A DNA stretch of 64,000 bases, from NCBI RefSeq assembly GCF_963506605.1, contig NC_083286.1, positions 32,736,001 to 32,800,000 on the forward strand. Reading direction: 5' to 3'. The stretch is from Zootoca vivipara. Lineage: Eukaryota. Each line of letters starts with the position of its first letter. The stretch's first letter is position 1. Both the position numbers and the translations under genes were made by a program. The notes under the pieces were generated by a model. The model did no database searches, was not told the DNA's origin, and was given only the letters and a program-made list of their open reading frames with translations. Below, in pieces: positions 1 to 33,318 of this stretch.

Positions 1-1275
1 CTAGGTTCAAGCAAAAGTGATATTCGATCCAAATCCCGTTCTGTATCCAACAGTGCTTAGTGCATTGATCTCATATTGCCTATGCTTGTAAAATGAATAT
101 TTATCCGTATCAAAGTAAATGAGACTGTAAAGAACATGGTCAACATGCATGGGGAAAGAAGGAAACACTGAGCTATACTCAGTTGCTTGGGGTACCATAT
201 AGCAAGCTGAGTATGACCCTCCTTCCCTTTGCTAGTACACGACACTTGGTAGGAAAAAGATTACAACATACAAATCTATCTCAGTTTTCCTGCACCTCCA
301 GGAGATACATGTCAGTGGCTATTTTGTTAAAGTGATCAATGCATTTCAGATATTAACACAAAAACCCTGAAAAACTACCTGCTCTAGCATGTACAGAATA
401 ATAACTTTCCTCTGTAAGTCAGAGTGGCAAACTGGTGCTGCTTCCATAAGTTGCTGGACTGCTATTAGTCCTAGCCAACTTCACCAATATTCAAGGATGA
501 TGAGAGTTATAGTTCTCTGATATCTGTGGACTATAGCCCTGTTGATAAGCCTTAACTGTTACTGGCATTGCCCTTTTCTTTGCCCTCCTGTTTAGTTTCC
601 TGTTTCATGCAGGATGCTAAACTCCTAAGAACAAGGATCTCTCTTCGTAATGGAGAAGCATAATTTGACAAGTACAACGAAGATGCTGCATAAATTCAAC
701 AACAGCAACAAAACCCACTATGAAGCACAGTCTATTCAGTTACAGTTAAGTTTATAACGGATTAAACACTTTAAAAAAAGTTTATACTGGAAAATTGGCA
801 ACTAGTTCTTGTTCTCAGAACTGGCACATCACTCATTCTTTCATGAAAATAAACAGATGACATATTTTTCAATACTTGCCAAAATAAAATTAATTTAGCC
901 ATCAACTTTTTAGTATCTTACATGTCATTTTATTAAATGACTCCTTAAAATATGTTCTGAAGTTGTGGGGTTTTTTTAAGGTACAAGAAGACAATCCAAC
1001 AAGCTGTGTAGGGATGGAAAAAATGATATTGGAGCAGAATTTGGTATAAACACAACCCGATAAGAGAAAATGTAAGAGTTTGAAAATCTTTCAAAACATG
1101 TTTTAGGATGCCTGTAAAATTTAAAAATCCTGTTAAATCAAGAAAAGATGGCACATGTTAACAAATATCTTAGGCTGCTACCAGGCAGATGATTCCTAGT
1201 ACTACTAATCACTGCTCTCCTGCTGTAAACTACCAGAATTGCAGAATACTTTCCTCACTATCAAGGGGTATATAT

Positions 1276-3378
1276 ATATATATTTTTAAATCATAATTTT
1301 TATTGATTTTACAAATTACAAAAAACGGTACATACATGAACACCTTTTCTACCTTCTTCCCGCCCCCCTCCATGGGTCCTCCGCTGCCACAGAAGTATCC
1401 CACGCAGGTGAACAGTCAGAGATGGTCCATTTTATGGTTGGATTTCTGTCCTCCTCCCCCTCCACTGCCCCCAAAGCCCCCCCCTGCCACCAGAGAGCTC
1501 CAGGAAACCAGGGCAGTACGCAGGAAGGCGTCCATCCAACCATCTATTCTCATACCAAAAAAGAGTAAAAAGAAAGAAAAAAAGAGACAAAAAAAGAGAC
1601 AAAAAAGGAAAAACAAAACAAAAATAATCTTTTTTCATTCATAATTAATAAACCATATTTTGTGGGCTTCCCCAACCTCCCCCCTTCCCCGGTTTTCATC
1701 CCTTTTTTATCCTCTTCAACAGTTTCTTATTCTATGAAATAATTACCTTTATACCTTATACTACTTTAAAACTTAGCTATTATCATTTTCACCAAATATC
1801 CAAATCACTGAAAAATCAAACTCCCATTTTTTCTTCCCGTGCCTAATTTCCCCCCCCCCTCTATAAGCCTCCATATTTTCACCTTTTTCCAAAATCAATT
1901 CACTTTTAAACTATAACTATTCCCAATCTAACCTTTCATCCCCAATTTCCGGCTCCAACCCCCCAATCCAGCAAGTTCCGTAGTCAGCAGTCCAGTTTTA
2001 ATCCTAGTAATCCATCCTATTAATCACAACTTCACTTTCCCTTCACCCCACCCCCTTTTTACAGTATTTTGTCATCCAGGCCTCCATACAGCACCCCTGA
2101 GTTTCTTCTCTTCTCTGCTTATTTTTTTCCTCTTCCCTGTGGGCATTCTGGAGTTCCAGTAAATCCAATCGTACCCCCCTCGAAGGAGGGGCACTCCACC
2201 TGACTTTTTGTAGAGTAAAATCATCTTTTTTTCGTGGTGAGCTTCATTTTGTATTATATTGTCACAGTCCTCATCTTCATCTTTTCGTTCCAAATCACAG
2301 TCCCCATCATTGTCAAAATCCTCCAAGTCACTGTCACTGTCATTCTCACACTCGTCTTCCTCAGTTTCAGTAGCTTCATCCTCTAAGAAGTCATATTCTG
2401 CCATCACCATCTGGAATTGTTGCTTTAACTCTTGCTGTTGTGTCTCCTCTTGACATAGTCCTATTCTTACTTCCCACATTATGGTCAAAACAGTCCGCTG
2501 GAACTCAGGCGAATACCTTTTTGTTGACATAGTTCAATCCTGTCAAGGTCAAAACTTGTCAAATGGGGTGGAAAATGGTCACAGTTTATTTTCTCGACTC
2601 CATTTTAACAAGCTGGCTGCATTCTCCAAATCTTATTAGAGATAAAGTTCAAACTCACATTTCAAAAGCATATAAACCAAAAAAAAGGATTTCCAAAAAG
2701 TCCAAAAATAGAAATAAAAATAAAATTCCACTTATAAATCCTGATCAACTCACTGGGTTGTCTGGGCTGCCGGCTCCCGGGGAAAAGAAAGGTCTTTCTT
2801 GATCTTAACCTCTTTCTGCAGGGTATTCACAACCGCAGTCTTTCTCCCCTTTTACCCTGCATCTAGGGGAGATCCTCTTTGATGCCTTTGAGGGAACCTT
2901 TTAAATTGAAATCTTCTATTTACGGCTTCGGGTTTCTATTTACTGTCTCTTAGGTTGCCGGTGTGGGGGGGGGTGGCTTCCTCTTTTTTCCCCTCTCTCC
3001 CAAATCCAAATTATTTTATAGTCCAAATCCAAATCGTGAGATTACTTACACTCTTATTTCCAATCGTTTTTTTTCGGAAGAATCCAGCGTTCTCCGCCTT
3101 TGGCTTGAAGCTTCTCTCCGCTAGGAGAACGTTGTCGCTCAAGATGGCCCCCGCGACTTCTACCCTCCTCGCTCCGGAGCTCTTATTAGAGCTTGCCGGA
3201 GAGTTGGGGAGTCCGGATTGGGGCTCTGCCGAGCAAAATTCGCCCCCGGGACGCTCTTCCCGAGGTTCTAAGGGGCGCAGCTTCGCTCTCGCTGCCCTCC
3301 CCACTCCTAGCAGAGACGGGCCGTCTCGGAGATGAGACGGGACCCCGCCGATCGGCGCTGGCGCTGAACCGGAAGCCC
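1276..3378 (-). mobile_element. Full-length non-autonomous L1-like retroelement (HAL1-like architecture) with a single short ORF
   Basis: The 15-bp direct repeat tcaaggggtatatat flanks it (1261-1275 and 3379-3393). The minus-strand 5' end is GGGCTTCCGGTT followed by a CpG-rich leader. The 3' end has AATAAA and an A/TA-rich tail. No endonuclease or RT motifs are visible. Confidence 0.8.
2072..2530 (-). CDS. 152-aa ORF of the L1-like element (helical Q/E-rich N-terminus, long acidic tract, basic C-terminus); function unknown
   Basis: ATG-initiated uninterrupted ORF at the ORF1 position, after an ~850-nt leader. Contains an acidic tract (EDEATETEEDECENDSDSDLEDFDNDGD...) and an NLS-like stretch (GKRKKISREEKK). 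Confidence 0.5.
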   Translation of the reverse strand: MSTKRYSPEFQRTVLTIMWEVRIGLCQEETQQQELKQQFQMVMAEYDFLEDEATETEEDECENDSDSDLEDFDNDGDCDLERKDEDEDCDNIIQNEAHHEKKMILLYKKSGGVPLLRGGYDWIYWNSRMPTGKRKKISREEKKLRGAVWRPG

Positions 3379-5606
3379 TCAAGGGGTATATATTGTGTCC
3401 TTATACGTGTATACATCCTGCTATATTTCACATTCTAGGCCTGAAGGTGTAACACAGATGCTTTGAGTGAAGAAGGCCTAATTCACCTGGGCAATCTTTT
3501 TTTATTAAAAAAAAATAATCTAATAAACCTGAGCCCCCTAAAAAAAACCTTTTAAATTAGTGCTAAGTGTTTGCTTCTTTTAAAAAGAGATATCCAAGAA
3601 ATGTGAAAAAACAAAGTTTTTCACTGTGGTTTTACAACTCTTCATTTAAGTGCTAATATTTTAATATAAAAAGGGGAAGGGCTTTAGCAGTAATCTAAAA
3701 TTCTAAAAAACAATAAATGTGCTAAAATTGTGACCACTGAAAAGGTAATAGTGAAGGTGTATTGAGCAGCAAAATATTCACCAGCATGGTATGTCACTGC
3801 ACATATCAAAACCCTACCCAGTTACAAAGAAGAGTTGTGCTAGGATTGTCTACACCTGAGGATTGTGCTCCTCTTCTATTCATTAAAAAAAAGGTGGCAG
3901 GCAGATACCCAGGAAAGGGCTGTTACTCAGACTCTTATTCCATGTCTCCACAGAAATTCAAACACTCAACGTGCACCATAGAAAATTCTGAGGTCATATA
4001 AAGTGGGGGGGGGGCAAGTAGCTGTGTTTATCCCCTGAAGCAATAGTAAAATGGAACTTCCATCAAAAGAGCAGAATGGGGTGACTTTAAACTTCTGGGT
4101 GCCAATGACCATCTCTAGACCTGAATACTTCCAAACTCTATGTCAGCAGGACTGCATTATGATGGAAACAAGAACTTTGAGGGCAAAACATGTTCAGCAA
4201 TAATGGCGCTTATGATCTTCTCTACTGATACTCCAAAAGCTTTTCCAGAAGTTCTATTCAGTGTTCTATAGCAACTGTTGATATTTCACAATAAAAAAAC
4301 TTAGCAGCCTTCTGTTAAACTATACTGAACACAACCTCTTCTGTTTAACAGAATTCTCCAGTATGTCTAAGAATAGCTACCCACACATGACTCAAGTATT
4401 AAGATATAAAACTTCCCTACCACAATGTCACTTTGCTGTGCTTCAGCACCACTACATCAAAACCCTCCAGAAAGTTAAGAATCTCTTTCCTTTAAGAAAA
4501 AAATACCACACCATTAACATACTTGGTCATTTTAGAAATAATGTTTATTGAAATTAAGTGATGCAATGGACAGAATTACTGTTGTACTATAAAGAACATG
4601 TCTTTTGGGTTCTTAACCACACAATGAAAAGAATAACAGCTGGATTAAGGTAAAAATAGTGCAATTTGATGCTGATATTTCAGAGGTGTGGACAAGATGG
4701 TACCTGTTCACATGAAATACATGACATAGCACTGAAATATCTTCAGAGTTCATAGCGAGGGAACTAAGCCTACAATGATGTGGTTCTGAGGAAGAGAACT
4801 TTTGCAACCCCGATGGCAGAAATCCTGGAGATGCCAGGGATTTTAAGCTCCTGTCACACATGAAATCACATTGCACTTTCCCCAAAGGGAATTATCACTA
4901 AAACTTTTATGAACTAGGCCAATTTATTTACTTATGTATAAACACTTTCATCAAGGATATTCATGAACAGGGCCACTAATCTAGTGTCACACATTTTACT
5001 AAATAAATTACACAAAGGAGTCAGCGAGTTTGGTAAGAATGTGAATTAGGAATTGATTGATCAATCAATTAATTAATTAATTTCTGATCCATATCAGTTT
5101 TACACATGTTCATTCATACATCCATTCTGTCCTGCTTCTTTATCTGTGATTTTTTAAAATAATTGCATGAAAATTGACATTTTGAACCTATTTATCAACA
5201 TATTTATTTTGTACACATTTTGGTACTTTTTTGAGGTAAGTAGTGTGACACGGAGAAGTACAAAAAGTACAAGTAAAACTGTACATATATTAGATGTGAT
5301 GTGAATCAAGTTGGTTCACTAAAAATGTAGACCAAATGAAATCCTCAAGCGCCTCTAATGTAAACAAGCCTTTTCTGTGTAATAATGCTGCTGCCTTCTT
5401 GGCTACAGAATAAATATCAAAAGCAAACCTTACTAGAATACTCTATCCAGTTCTAGGAACCACAATTTAAGAAGGATACCAACAAGCTGGAATGTGTGCA
5501 AAGGAGGGTGACCAAGATGATAAACAGTCTGGAAGCCAAGCCTTATGAGGAACAGTTGAGGGAATTGGGTATATTTAGCCTGGAAAAGTGGGGACTGAGA
5601 GGAGAC

Positions 5607-10036: not shown

Positions 10037-10638
10037 TTCTAATAAAACCAAGTAAGGCTGGATTAATACATGCTTATTATACCACAGCACTGGCCTCAGC
10101 CAGAATTTGTTTCCCCCTCTTTTTCAGTTAGCTGAAAAGTTCTATTTACAGCAACACAGTTGTAGGTGCTTGTCAACCACAGCAGAAATTAATCTGAATT
10201 TCTATTATATAGAAGGGCAGGTCCAGAGTGAGCCTGTGGCACACATTTCCTGTACCTTTAAATATAGCATTAGAAATGCTTCTCCTGCATGACTATTTTT
10301 ATTCAAAATGGAACTGGGAATTGTTCCACTTACATTGGCTCATAGAAAGAGGTGAATTATCTATTTCAGAACTTCACCTCCATCTGGTCTGTAGAAAGAT
10401 TTTCAGTAGAAACAAAAGAATTAGGAATCATCTATAGCTAGTTGTGCTTAAAACCCGTGTAATAAAGATTGTATAATTATTTCATATTTTACTGCTATTA
10501 ATATTTCTCACATTTAGCAAATGGACTTTTTAGGGTTGATCCTTTTCCCTGGACTAAAAAAGGTGTAGTTTGGGATACTGGTATCCACGATTCAGCTAAA
10601 TTAATTCCATGCTGTAATAGGTGGAAGAAGCCTCTAAC

Positions 10639-10736
10639 CTGTTGTGTAATGGTATCCCAGGGGCCCTGCCAGAGCTGCTCCCTGTAGCATTCATGTACTC
10701 CTTTCCATATTTCATCCAGAGTTAAAGGCCTTCCAT
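10639..10736 (-). CDS. ATG10: ATG10 internal coding exon, 98 bp
   Basis: Minus strand reads tttttttccag|ATGGAAGG...CAACAG|gttag. It translates to (D)GRPLTLDEIWKGVHECYREQLWQGPWDTITQQ, close to human ATG10 DGRPLTLKDIWEGVHECY...QGPWDTITQQ as recalled. Phase is compatible with the 15704-15830 exon. Confidence 0.95.
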
Positions 10737-12878
10737 CTGGAAAAAAATAATAATTGTAATATATGTATCTCCACATACACACACAAAATGCAGATAATTC
10801 AAAAGCAAAAACAGAAAACACAGAGAAAATTCTATTTCTTTTAAAAGATGCCACAACAACATCTGGGATTTCTGTGTATGTGGTTGGGTGTGTGTGTGAT
10901 GGAACATGGCCCAACCCTGGTGAGTGTTTTGTAGCAGTCTTGTCCACGTAGCAGAATAACTGCCCTCTTCAGAGTCCTCACCATGCAATATTGATTGCTT
11001 ACTCTTGTATCCTGCATAGTTGCTGAGGTTTTATAACAGAATGAAGTTACAGTATTGAAAAGAAACATATGATCTTTGCCCAAGTATTTGTTTTTGACAA
11101 ATGAGAGACTATTTTGATGCTTTTTCAATAAGTATCATTATCTTGGCATTTATCAGGTGTCAGGAGGCCATTATCCTGTGATAAATAGTTTTATTCCACT
11201 GACATTTTCATGTCCGTGAAATAAACAAGATTTATTCATCCAATTAACATTTGAATGTCATGTTTAGAAACAATCCGAAATCCTGTTGCCATCAGATTCA
11301 GTTTTATCTTATTTTTGTTGAGCACACTCAAAATGGAGGACAAACTTCTCTGTTGATACCAGTAGTAACTTCAATGTGGGAAAATAAAACAGGGAGCAAG
11401 CAAAGTCAACAATATCTATGTAGGGAAATAGGATTTTATTGCATTAAGTGATAAAATGATACACAAGCCACAACTACTAATGCGATGGCTAGAGCATGCC
11501 CTAAGTTACCACACATTTAGGAAATGCAATTGAAAAGGTTCCTGGTGATCTCCTTTGTGTGGTTTTTAGTACTGGAGAGCACACAAAGAGCAAGCAGATT
11601 CCTGCTGTGGAATTCCCCTCCTCCATATGTCTGCTGCTAGTGGTTATGTTCTGGATGCTATGTAAGGATTTTTTGCTTAGATAAGTATGGCAATCTCTTA
11701 TTACTATATTAATTTGTCAACACATAATTTAAATTTATATTTGAATTGCTATTCTTACAAATGTTCACTGTTTAATCACCGTAAAGAGGGTAAGAGAGTA
11801 AAAAACCTTATAGATATAACCACACATAACTACATAAAATAATCTGTGCTGTAATATACATACCTGACCATGTGTTAAATTCAATTTGTTGGTCCTCAGA
11901 AACCACAAACTGCACTTTATGTTGTTTCCTCTAATCCCATAATAATATCTAGATCAGAAGGTCTTACTCTACTAGGCTGAGACCCACACCTGGATTGCTG
12001 TGTTGGACCTAAAATGGGTCAAACCAGCAACACTACCATGATACAAATAAATAGTAAAAAGAAAAAAGAAAAAATCTATCAATATAAAAGCAAAAATTTC
12101 AGGCTTCTGAATTCTCGCTAAGAATTAAACTTCATTTAGGTTTTTAATTTATAAAGAATAGTGTGGATCTGGAGTGAGTTTTGCCTCTTTCAGAGATGAA
12201 AGCTTTATCACTTAGCATTTCACAGAGATATGATTGCACCTAATGAAGTTGTTATAAAATAATGTTCCCATTGACTATTACTCTTCCTCAATTGTCATAC
12301 AGAGGCAAATGTTCCAGCAACAATAGTTTTGAAGATTATGAATCCTCACGTGGTATGTTTTCCATGTTGGAAATTTAGACAAGATATTTACATACACTTC
12401 TATTTTGATGCATATACATGAGCTGAAGAGTCACAAAAATGGACAGGTACAGGGAAGTCTACACAGAAAGCTCATCTTATGCCAAATGAACTTAGGATGA
12501 AATACTATGCATGTCGCCCTGCTAAACATGCTTCCTTGTTAAAACTAGGATTGCCTATTGATACACTACTAGTATCACATTTCTAATTTATCTGTTGTCA
12601 GCAGCTAAGCCGATACACTTCACCAGAAATTGCTCATAGGACATTGCTGCCAGAAAATCACAACCATACAGATGATGCAACATGAATCATGCAACTAGGA
12701 GCAGCATTATGTATGGAAGTGGTAAAAATACAACCAAGAGAAAAATAATGTATTGTTTTCTCTCTAGCATAGACACATTCCAAAACGTTTAAAATTTTAA
12801 ATAATATGTTTTCTGCTGTTTTTATTTTTTATTTTTAAATTAATGATAGAAGTATATGTTTTGGAAATGCTCCAAAAC

Positions 12879-30330: not shown

Positions 30331-32239
30331 CTTTACGGTGAAAAATAAATTAGATTAAAATCAAAGTTTGTAATTAAAACCATTATTTTCCACAAATTTC
30401 TTGGTTACACACTACAGGTCAGCATCATACTCCCAACAAAGTCAACACAAAAAGCCCTCACAATGGAATGGTTGATGCAATTTATATTATTCACACAGTG
30501 TTCTCCGTGAATAATTATTCTCACAGTTAAAAAGCTCTACTGTTAAACTGTTACAATACCTCACGACATGCATTTTTAATACTGAAATTAAAATAAATCT
30601 GTTGAGTGTATATATATCTCACCCACACCCACACAAAATTGAGCACCCTGAAACATAAAATACAAATATACCTTATGATAACCAAATATGCCTAAAATTT
30701 TCTATTCTGTGGCATTAGATTTTTTTCCTCACTGTTGCTAAAAGGTCATGTTCAAAATTTAAATGCAGTATTTGAAGTGTTCTTGGGCACAATGAATCAG
30801 CTAAAATCTTTGTCTTGGGGACATTTTTGCTTCCTGACAGAAAGCCTGAAAGACAATTAATGAAGACTAAAATAATCCAATAGTAGTATCTCAATGGTAG
30901 TTGGCAAAATGTAAAACTGACAGAATGAAAACAAAAGTAGCTGCTTTAAATGAACTATGGACAAGGAATACACAACTGACATAAAAATATGATAACAGAG
31001 TTGACATGGCATTTACTGATACGCTAATATGTGCTTATTTCCCCATTGGAAAAATAAATTAGTCTCAGTTTAAGGCATTCAGTCCTCTTCAGTGTCTTCT
31101 ATTATTACAAATGTTTCATGACAAGGAGTAATAGAGACTATCACACATTGAGCTTCACTTTCAAATAGTGAAGGAGAGGTTTAAGAAATATGTTTGTGAC
31201 CATTGATTTAAAAAGTGAACTGTCTGGGTCAAACAACTATATGAGCAAATGTGGAGAATCAACCTCTATGAAGGATTGTGTGGCCTTGGAAAGCCATCTG
31301 TAGTCTAAATTTTCCATTTTAGCCAGTTCCAAATGGTTGCTCAGCACTGTATAACAAAATATCACTTCCAATAGTGAGACCAGAACTTTTGAATAAATGA
31401 GTTCAAATTTTGAAAAATATTATTTCTATACTTACTAAACACACTGCATTTGCATCACTAGTTTTATAAAATGTGTATCTTCTGCAGTTCCAATTTCATT
31501 TTTACAGTTTTCCCAATTGACAAAGGCAATTATCTAACAGTGCCCTGTCCAAACTATTATTTCCTGGGATACTGCCAGCCCTGCATAAGAATATAATCTT
31601 TTTGAAACTATTTTACTGTGGGTGATTTTAACAACTAATTGTTCTTTATATGAATTCCCATCACATATATGAAACTCTTGGGCTGGCTGAAATAATTGTT
31701 CATTGTAAGCAGAAGCAATAACATTTATTCTATATATAAATATAACTGGATTTATGTTAAATGGTTGCATAAATGCAACTGTTTTGGATCCCATTTATGC
31801 TCAATGGCTCCTCAAGTCTGCAAATATGTTACTGAAAAACCATTTAGGGAATGGGAAACATTATAATAAAGATTATTAATAATATGTAAGCATGAACAAT
31901 CTAAGCAAGCCAGGGAGAAAGCTTAGCTCCTAGTTTCAGAAGGCTTAGAAGCTTGAAATCCTGCTCTGTGCAGAACCAGAATGAATGACTACACAGAGAG
32001 CATAAAGAGGAATGAAAGTACATAAGCAAAATGAATCCTGAAATGTTTATAAATGGAACACTGATATAAAGTGTTCAACTATATGATTAAATTCAATTAG
32101 ACTTGGACAGACCCATCCCTATAAATTTCGCTGGGTGAGCTTGGTCTGTTATTGCCTAACCTTCCTAACATGGTTGTTGCATGGATAAAAACAGGAGGGG
32201 GGAACCATGTTTGTCACCCTAGAACAGTACATGGGGGAG

Positions 32240-33318
32240 GATCATTCCTCCTGAGCTGTGTCCAAAAAGTGTTGTTGGGGAATGAGTGTTCAGACCTCTG
32301 GGCTCTCACTTGTGGGGTGCCTCAGAGCTCCGTCCTCTTCTCCATGCTTTTTAACATCTATATGAAACTGCTGGGAGAGATCATCAGGGAGTTGAGGGTC
32401 GACGTTCACCAGTATGCAGATGATACCCAGCTCTACCTCTCCTTCAAATCTGAACCAGTGAAGGTCCTGTTTGAGTGTCTGGGGGCAGTTAGAGAATGGA
32501 TGGCAACTAACAGATTGAGGCTGAATCCTGACAAGACAGAAGTACTGTTTTTTTGGGGGGGATGGGGGCAGGCAGGGTGGGGAACTCCCCAGTGCTGAAC
32601 ATGGTAACTGTGCCCCAGAAGGACCAGGTGTGCAACCTGGGAGTCATTTTGGACTCAGCTGTCCATGGAGGCGCAGGTCAATTCTGCCTCCAGGGCAGCT
32701 GTCTACCAGCTCCATCTGGTACGCAGGCCAGATGGTACCCTACCTGCCTGTAGACTATCTCGCCAGAGTGGTGTATGCTCTAGTTATCTCCTGCTTAGAC
32801 TACTGCAATGCGCTCTACGCAGGGCTACCTTTGGAGGTGACCCGGAAACTACAACTAATCCAGAATGTGGCAGCTAGACTGGTGACTGGGAGTGGCCGCT
32901 GGGACCTAAAGGATCTTCATTGGCTCCCAGTGCGTTTCCGAGCACAATTCAAAGTGCCCTAAATGGCCTCAGCCCAGTATACCTGAAGGAGCGTCTCCTC
33001 CCCCATCATTCAGCCTGGACGCTGAGGTCCTCCTCCGAGGGTCTTCTGCTGGTTCCCTCCCTGAGAGAAGTGAGGTTACAGGGAACCAGGCAGAGGGCCT
33101 TCTCAGTAGTGGCGCCCGCCCCGTGGAACACCCTCTCATCAGATATCAAGGAAATAAACAACTGACTTTTAGAAGACACCTGAAGGCATCCCTGTATCGG
33201 GAGGTTTTTAATGTTTGATGTTTTAGTATGTGCTGATATGTGCTGTGAGCTGCCCAGAGTGGCTGGTGAAACCCAGACAGATGGGCAGGGTATAAATAAA
33301 ATTGTTGTTGTTGTTATT
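32240..33318 (+). mobile_element. 5'-truncated L2-clade LINE (RT C-terminal half plus 3' UTR), frameshifted
   Basis: Encodes CGVPQSSVL...HQYADDTQLY...LRLNPDKTEVL, LDYCNALY, LHWLPV and RAFSVVAP; ends aataaa plus a (GTT)n tail. Confidence 0.92.

Follow-up and report, generated by a model that had tools for sequence, protein, structure and literature searches.

The element near the start of the window (the whole 64,000-nucleotide stretch of DNA analysed) belongs to a group of retroelements that is large, old and recently amplified, and that has no copying enzyme of its own. Our best explanation, held with slightly better than even confidence, is that it represents a frameshifted copy of a superfamily of 2.1-2.3 kb elements, which are likely copied by L1 ORF2p and encode their own 130-167 aa protein, likely an adaptor. 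The finding exceeds the proposal of the first-pass annotation, in that the group is a superfamily made up of two clades, in which RNA features are conserved as well. The features of the window copy were as follows:

1276-3378, minus strand: full-length non-autonomous retroelement of 2103 nt; near full-length relatives at 91-99% identity were spread over many contigs, most with their own target-site duplication (TSD)
1261-1275, no strand: TSD at the 3' side of the element, a perfect 15-bp direct repeat (100%)
3379-3393, no strand: TSD at the 5' side of the element, the same perfect 15-bp direct repeat (100%)
3367-3378, minus strand: 5' terminal motif G(G/A)CTTCCGGTT, common to the autonomous L1s of this genome and the lizard clade-1 L1 5' end published in the available part of PMC5381506
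3050-3378, minus strand: CpG-island head (CpG o/e 1.02), the best-kept DNA between families
2540-3049, minus strand: putative leader intron, with a GTAAGT donor-like site at element nt 330, a branch/pyrimidine-like stretch and an AG 9 nt before the ATG
2072-2530, minus strand: ORF as read in the window copy (152 aa), frameshifted past about residue 102
2226-2232, minus strand: A7 run, the one-base frameshift site, identified from the nearest copies and RNA reads
2043-2225, minus strand: C-terminal part of the family frame, ending in KKGVG and a stop, out of frame in the window copy
1665-1677, minus strand: GAAG(T/C)C motif in a putative small hairpin with weak pairing
1472-1502, minus strand: hairpin 1, with a GUGGCAG loop
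1372-1402, minus strand: hairpin 2, with a GUGGCAG loop
1299-1304, minus strand: AATAAA polyadenylation signal
1276-1287, minus strand: short tail, only A5 followed by a short (TA)n run

The architecture initially read from the sequence was partly borne out, namely the 15-bp TSD, the ~850-nt leader (848 nt), the ~800-nt 3' UTR and the AATAAA signal (1304-1299). The intact, CpG-bearing 5' end was likewise upheld: the element starts with GGGCTTCCGGTT at 3378 and contains 31 CpG within its first 330 nt. Its nearest copy is 98.5% identical.

Exact copies of the 5' head were found 499 times in the genome, versus none for the control, and the copy search yielded 1744 candidates (40 of them scored), confirming the proposed multi-copy family and discarding a single-copy origin. 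Copies with 99.5% identity also occurred. Copy counts and nested subfamilies with inherited changes, which showed omega values below 1 on internal branches, indicate that the element replicates as its own family. TSDs of at least 10 bp were detected at 79 of 93 loci (median 17 bp), with an A-rich start and, in 69 of the 79, a preceding pyrimidine (Y/AAAA-like sites); 5'-truncated copies and one inverted copy (L137) were also present. Neither the 11 loci selected through the 3' end nor the 20 selected through the hairpin had an ORF2 attached to the element, all 40 head-picked loci were short elements of the same kind, and no autonomous partner with the same 3' end, head or hairpins was found in these samples (11, 40 and 20 loci). 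The absence of ORF2 at these loci, together with the L1-type TSDs and truncations, supports the earlier description of an ORF2-less L1-type element. Between families, identity was about 80% over nt 1-310, the remainder being barely alignable. Two other origins were tried and rejected. SINEs are non-coding and their heads derive from tRNA, 7SL, 5S or snRNA, whereas here Rfam gave one weak match far below threshold and the ORF is under selection. Processed retrocopies of a host gene are star-like copies of one parent that decay neutrally, in contrast to the nested subfamilies, the internal-branch omega below 1, the L1-type head and the lack of a host homologue observed here.

The ORF is real and under purifying selection. 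It was intact in 21/30 copies picked by DNA similarity, 10/12 picked by the leader and 37/40 picked by the head, its inherited indels were in frame, and an omega of 0.389 was preferred over one fixed at 1 (lnL -2979.5 vs -3014.3), with values of 1.43, 0.87 and 2.04 in the control frames. Conservation of the ORF among copies was therefore established, and the protein is in all probability functional, promoting the spread of the element. The window copy itself is an imperfect representative. Among its 30 nearest copies, the base run at the frameshift site was A8 in 15, AAAGAAAA in seven and A7 in three, so that eight bases were the majority state, while the window copy has seven A; most RNA reads carried an extra base at this run (2/3 raw-read runs). 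Being one base short, the window copy shifts frame near codon 102, which places its last ~50 residues, basic tail included, outside the family frame; the latter runs on to KKGVG and a stop at 2045-2043, and the proteins of this subfamily measure 162/164 aa. Thus, the 152-aa ORF described previously does exist from its ATG (2530-2072) but is not clean, and both its length and its basic NLS-like tail are artefacts of a frameshifted copy.

The proteins of the sister families (130-167 aa) fall into two clades, with identity as low as 19-30%. Across families, the proteins retained a helix with MxT..F..VL..WE at the N-terminus, an acidic central part and [RK]xGVG at the C-terminus; M1, T3, F10, W19/E20 and GVG persisted in the deep families, with synonymously varying codons, and H131 was as invariant as F10, W19 and the GVG end. 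The [RK]xGVG terminus was present in 21/27 clade-A proteins (RKGVG in 13/27, and K at the same place in nine), and RxGVG in the 4/4 clade-B proteins listed; position -5 was K, not R, in the youngest clade-A families, including that of the window copy. The middle was nearly unalignable between families and tolerated large in-frame indels, and its acidic tract varied in length and was much weaker in several sisters (pI 4.2-8.6), which disfavours charge mimicry as the core function. Structure prediction gave an N-terminal helix (pLDDT ~95) and a disordered middle, no beta strand being present in either of the two models (all-helical plus disorder), and no RNA-binding domain was recognisable in this protein, which is usually acidic. 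Searches with one sequence and two alignments, restricted to proteins of similar length, returned no homologue at E <= 1. The only match in a search of 1.84 billion proteins, which used the narrow alignment A1 only, was a fern leucine-rich-repeat protein that failed pairwise comparison. ESM Atlas yielded no usable match for either clade, no Pfam entry reached its cut-off, no PDB sequence scored below E 1.3, Foldseek found no fold at E <= 0.001, and VIA-align retrieved only generic long helices (Z <= 5.8); the PF02994 genome search was negative, as were its controls. Among the literature listings and abstracts searched, outside subscription journals, Repbase Reports and supplements, no description of the element family was found.

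At the RNA level, 15 elements representing both clades shared a splice-donor-like site at nt 322-330, whose fixed position suggests that it is functional, and the CpG head is likely an internal Pol II promoter plus exon 1. The leader holds 3-9 upstream ATGs. The putative intron was still present in genomic copies, no spliced joint was seen in RNA from four runs, and no genomic splice junction was detected for the one acceptor choice searched. RNA was low-level and of inconsistent strand (154-265 reads per ~7.5 million). Hairpins with a GUGG(C/G)AG loop were kept among families and showed covariation, with a score of 0.586 versus 0.411 in shuffles that ignore relatedness and at most 0.33 in slid controls, for a sample picked by a pattern fixing part of two pairs. 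A CTCF-like DNA reading of the hairpin motif was set aside, given that the flanking bases show stem covariation and the position preceding the loop is not constant.

We consider it very likely that the element is transcribed by Pol II from its CpG head and that L1 ORF2p then uses the polyadenylated RNA, in its unspliced form, as template in target-primed reverse transcription. The protein might be made from a spliced message from which the 3-9 upstream ATGs would be removed. Its N-terminal helix would dock either on one of the L1 proteins or on a factor of a host RNP, the conserved C-terminus or some partner from the host would hold the GUGG(C/G)AG hairpins, and the acidic middle would act as a flexible spacer; we give about an even chance to the protein being such an adaptor linking the element RNA to the L1 machinery. 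A point that tells against this model is that trans action through a spliced message would weaken the selection expected of a pure cis-adaptor. More tentatively, and with considerable doubt, the elements may constitute a new class of vertebrate retro-parasite, an L1 satellite with a non-ORF1p protein, its own cognate hairpins, a retained leader intron and a retrovirus-like logic, in which spliced RNA would give a protein acting as adaptor or in counter-defence, whereas the unspliced form would be the mobile genome for L1 ORF2p.

Intact L1s (ORF1p of 304-388 aa, ORF2p of ~1250 aa) are abundant in this genome and share with the element an ~11-nt 5' motif and GAAG(T/C)C (20 L1 loci sampled), most local L1s having a similar motif in their 3' UTR. 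Beyond these short terminal motifs no alignable parent was found among the 20 loci, whose 3' UTRs lacked the hairpins, and no similarity to local ORF2p was detected. An origin as an ordinary L1 that suffered a single internal deletion and has an ORF by chance would agree with the 5' motif and insertion hallmarks, but is refuted by the hundreds of copies in many subfamilies, the selected ORF and a body without L1 homology, leaving it a practically nil probability. An extremely eroded HAL1, whose protein would be an ORF1p remnant (the first coiled-coil heptads plus an acidic tail) co-assembling into helper ORF1p trimers, is unlikely but credible: the ORF occupies the place of ORF1 behind a leader of ~0.8 kb that bears the L1 5' motif, the best, non-significant profile match aligns LLWExxIG with the initial heptads of ORF1p, the C-tails of local ORF1p proteins are acidic, and an acceptor-like tract just precedes the ORF1 ATG in 2/9 L1 leaders. 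The match nevertheless remained non-significant in hhalign against 11 local ORF1p (probability 0.18% and 0.31%, E 0.2-0.33) and in HMM cross-searches with local L1 proteins (E >= 0.1), the RRM, CTD and any beta strand are absent from the predicted protein, and W19, F10, H131 and the GVG end have no counterpart in the 16 ORF1p compared, all from clade-1-like L1s. These values (hhalign 0.2-0.3%) agree with the initial remark that the protein is not recognisably ORF1p.

A rather low probability was assigned to a counter-defence role, in which a host factor repressing L1-type RNA would be bound by the N-terminal helix and destroyed by a CRL2 ubiquitin ligase that the glycine end recruits, or would shorten the protein's own life. 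The layout, with a short conserved segment at either end of a disordered linker, is adaptor-like, and the frequent [RK]xGVG terminus of clade A and RxGVG of clade B resemble, as a motif match, the RxxxG type of C-degron, for which the available text of the sources describes an APPBP2 form, Rx[2-4]Gx[0-3] (PMC7458402), a link to KLHDC3 (PMC12922316) and use by a viral adaptor (10.1101/2023.09.27.559663). However, K replaces R at -5 in the youngest clade-A families, the penultimate residue is V rather than the R/K/Q of the KLHDC3 consensus (PMC11568203, in part), and a suppressor acting in trans would profit all copies, so that weak selection would be expected. It is improbable that only translation matters, by holding the ribosome near nascent ORF2p or by escape from RNA surveillance, with an incidental protein sequence. 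The near-unalignable, indel-tolerant middle and the only moderate omega (0.39-0.57) would suit it, whereas specific residues stay invariant at 19-30% identity over synonymously changed codons, and omega is well under 1, unlike in the shifted frames.

If the preferred explanation of an L1-copied superfamily with an adaptor protein holds, this young, intact 2-kb system, with copies 99.5% identical, would suit asking what an RNA needs for capture by ORF2p in trans, a question still unanswered for Alu, SVA and retrogenes; reptile annotation would gain an orphan gene family along with a new RNA motif. SVA and LAVA are also kilobase-sized parasites mobilised by L1, but are non-coding composites, whereas the element encodes a selected protein. 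The probable helper is the lizard clade-1 L1, described in part in PMC5381506 as having the 5' end GACTTCCGGT and a long CpG-containing 5' UTR; it resembles the element in its 5' end, CpG-containing leader and 3'-UTR GAAG(T/C)C, but is autonomous, ~6.5 kb long and without alignable DNA past the short motifs. Splice signals inside the leader of an L1-type RNA recall the SpIREs of the human L1 5' UTR, where splicing gives dead-end copies (PMC5860796, in part), although here the donor-like site is position-fixed in both clades and no spliced copy was found. The closest parallel in working appears to be HAL1 (half-L1) of mammals, with a single ORF downstream of an L1-like 5' end, no ORF2, L1-type TSDs and an A tail; the element likewise lacks ORF2, bears L1-type insertion hallmarks and forms a family of its own. 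HAL1 is, however, defined as non-autonomous and encoding ORF1p without ORF2 (PMC5753468 and PMC5786205, in part), whereas the element protein is under half that size, has no RRM/CTD and shows no significant similarity to local ORF1p, so that, judging by the clade-1-like L1s compared, it does not appear to derive from ORF1p; the repeated 3' hairpins and the conserved donor-like site also set it apart. HeT-A (Jockey clade) and Ag-Sponge (CR1 clade) are further protein-coding non-autonomous LINEs, of other clades and hosts, and the proteins of such elements are thought to multimerise with those of their helpers (PMC5786205, in part). According to the same source, HAL1, HeT-A and Ag-Sponge all encode the ORF1p of their partner. 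A parasite whose small protein is unrelated to it and which spreads to thousands of copies would represent another route around L1 cis preference.

The element lay on the minus strand of the window, and its parts were as follows:

3378 to 1276, minus strand: whole element, bounded by perfect 15-bp direct repeats
start of the element, minus strand: 5' start motif GGGCTTCCGGTT
848 nt, minus strand: leader
2530-2072, minus strand: ATG ORF as read in this copy, 152 aa
~800 nt, minus strand: 3' UTR, with AATAAA and then a short A5(TA)n tail

The 15-bp target-site duplication (TSD), the GGGCTTCCGGTT start, the ~850-nt leader, the ~800-nt 3' UTR and the AATAAA described in the first-pass annotation were all found, and the first 330 nt contained 31 CpG (observed/expected 1.02). 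Elsewhere in the window, a minus-strand stretch (10501-10968) reads DGRPLTLDEIWKGVHEC...GPWDTITQQ, which presumably resembles an ATG10 exon, an identity not confirmed by Pfam or PDB searches; the element would have the same orientation as this putative exon and would be downstream of it or intronic. A broken reverse-transcriptase fragment (YADD) from another LINE was located at 32125-32959, plus strand.

A DNA search of the host genome (1.44 Gb, 48 contigs) yielded 1744 candidates, and the majority of the 40 scored were near full length, with 91-99% identity. The exact pattern of the CpG-rich 5' end, or head, occurred 499 times, against 0 for the control, and TSDs of at least 10 bp (median 17 bp) were present at 79 of 93 loci, bearing out the suspected multi-copy family with its own TSDs. 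These TSDs started A-rich and were preceded by a pyrimidine in 69 of 79 cases, in agreement with the target preference of the L1 endonuclease. 5'-truncated copies were also present, as was one internally inverted copy (L137); TSDs, truncations and inversion together are the full signature of L1 target-primed reverse transcription. ORF2 was not found at the element copies in three sets (11, 40 and 20 loci), and local L1s with ~1250-codon ORF2 frames were plentiful. Given these hallmarks of insertion and the lack of ORF2 at these loci, we infer that the element would be mobilised by L1 ORF2p. Nine copies of one subfamily were 98.7-99.8% identical, indicating recent amplification. Four family copies (L019, L026, L146 and L175) were inserted within or immediately adjoining other family copies, two loci (L008 and L010) had identical TSD and flanks and are therefore products of segmental duplication, and contig C18 carried a cluster of several copies with equal scores and repeated identical hits.

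A protein of 162 or 164 aa ending in KKGVG was encoded by 21 of the 30 nearest copies. Near codon 102 the window copy is one A short in a homopolymer, as are two other copies (L004 and L016), so that the basic NLS-like tail proposed earlier proved to be out-of-frame sequence created by this slip. RNA reads had the extra base at this site in 19/31, 18/19 and 4/17 cases. Family RNA was low (154-265 reads per ~7.5 million, mainly 90-95% identical to the window copy), with coverage that extended to the element 5' end and dropped to zero in the flank.

The family ORF is under selection. It was intact in 37 of 40 copies chosen by the 5' head alone and in 10 of 12 chosen by a leader motif. Across 69 copies, 40 of them chosen by protein search and hence biased toward intact frames, the three inherited ORF indels were all in frame (33, 27 and 6 nt) and the sole shared frameshift was the homopolymer slip, as compared with 14 of 114 shared UTR indels divisible by three. 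When 58 unique coding sequences were fitted with a codon model, omega was 0.389 (lnL -2979.5 vs -3014.3 at omega 1), the shifted and reverse control frames gave 1.43, 0.87 and 2.04, and parsimony on internal branches gave 0.29-0.48; preservation of the ORF among copies, on which the first-pass reading depended, was thereby upheld.

Copies chosen by their head exposed sister families, alignable well at the DNA level over the first ~310 nt only, with a 130-134-aa ORF at the matching position, and protein searches widened the set to 27 representatives (23-81% identity). A second clade (B; 931 candidates, no stop in most of the 150 scored) was reached through a hairpin motif; its protein, MKTKYSRAFQEAVLNYLQxWE...GVG, is 19-29% identical to that of clade A, which includes the window copy, and it has the length, head, TSDs and donor-like site of clade A. 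The clade-A profile by itself scored clade B at just E 0.005-0.18, and the link between the clades rests on architecture and two terminal motifs. Residues invariant in both were M1, T3, F, W-E, a Q and the opening G of GVG; their codons varied synonymously. AlphaFold modelled residues 8-50 as a confident helix and the middle as disordered, with a weak helix at the C-terminus.

GT(A/G)AGT was present at nt 322-330 in 15 elements representing both clades; the predicted exon 1 had 0-3 ATGs, with none in 8 of 10 leaders from clade A, the next ~500 nt had 3-9, and a branch-like, pyrimidine-rich stretch and AG preceded the start codon. The arrangement looks like an intron kept in genomic copies, and it remains a prediction, since four RNA runs showed no splice joint and one junction pattern turned up no spliced genomic copy. 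In two autonomous L1 families (L119 and L125), CAG and a strong polypyrimidine tract lay just a few bases ahead of the ORF1 ATG, and upstream there were donor-like sites, which suggests that some lizard L1s have an intron in the 5' UTR. Two other local L1s (L128 and L129) carried CTCCATCTGGTGG ~45 nt before ORF1, which we take to resemble an opposite-strand CTCF site.

Most 3' UTRs examined contained 2-4 hairpins with a GUGG(C/G)AG loop. In 50 hairpins, chosen by pattern and related to one another, 87% of cells paired and the covariation score was 0.586, vs 0.411 shuffled and at most 0.33 slid. The motif occurred 7150 times in the genome vs 1246 for the control, suggesting a total of roughly 1500-3000 elements; none of the 20 L1s examined had it in the 3' UTR, and no Rfam family matched. 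GAAG(T/C)C, common to the elements and most of the 20 L1s, is a candidate ORF2p recognition signal. In the 3' UTRs of most of these divergent L1s (L113-L131) it was found, often within a small hairpin. In the window copy, a U-rich tract of the 3' UTR was predicted to pair with purine-rich sequence preceding the poly(A) signal (1280-1640, minus strand), a pairing that would enclose both hairpins (z -2.7).

A selfish element retains an ORF under selection only where the product aids its spread. Two short conserved ends joined by a variable linker suggest an adaptor, and the favoured reading is that it would link element RNA to the L1 particle. The protein might instead be an eroded ORF1p, a relationship for which the sole hint was a non-significant alignment of LLWExxIG to the first ORF1p heptads; comparison with 16 local ORF1p and with every frame of 20 L1 loci detected no significant similarity, in line with the earlier remark that the protein does not resemble canonical ORF1p. 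No match was found in Pfam, PDB, the Atlas or a 5.8-billion protein collection, and the sole match among 1.84-billion representatives, queried with a narrow alignment, was an artefact. Most local L1 ORF1p (L112-L130) ended in an acidic tail and carried an RRxS-like motif close to the N-terminus; three were compared with the Pfam L1 ORF1 models, and none matched. A degron-bearing counter-defence protein is a further alternative, which the [RK]xGVG end fits in part (RxxxG), and in another, translation would matter for its own sake.

Local L1s start with the lizard clade-1 5' motif, as published in passages of PMC5381506. No description of the family was found in the literature searched. The family is real, and there is a fair chance that it is a new class of element. 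It would work in a similar way to HAL1 (half-L1), HeT-A and Ag-Sponge; these encode ORF1p, according to passages of PMC5753468 and PMC5786205, whereas the family protein has no detectable similarity to ORF1p, and for this reason the element was not assigned to HAL1.
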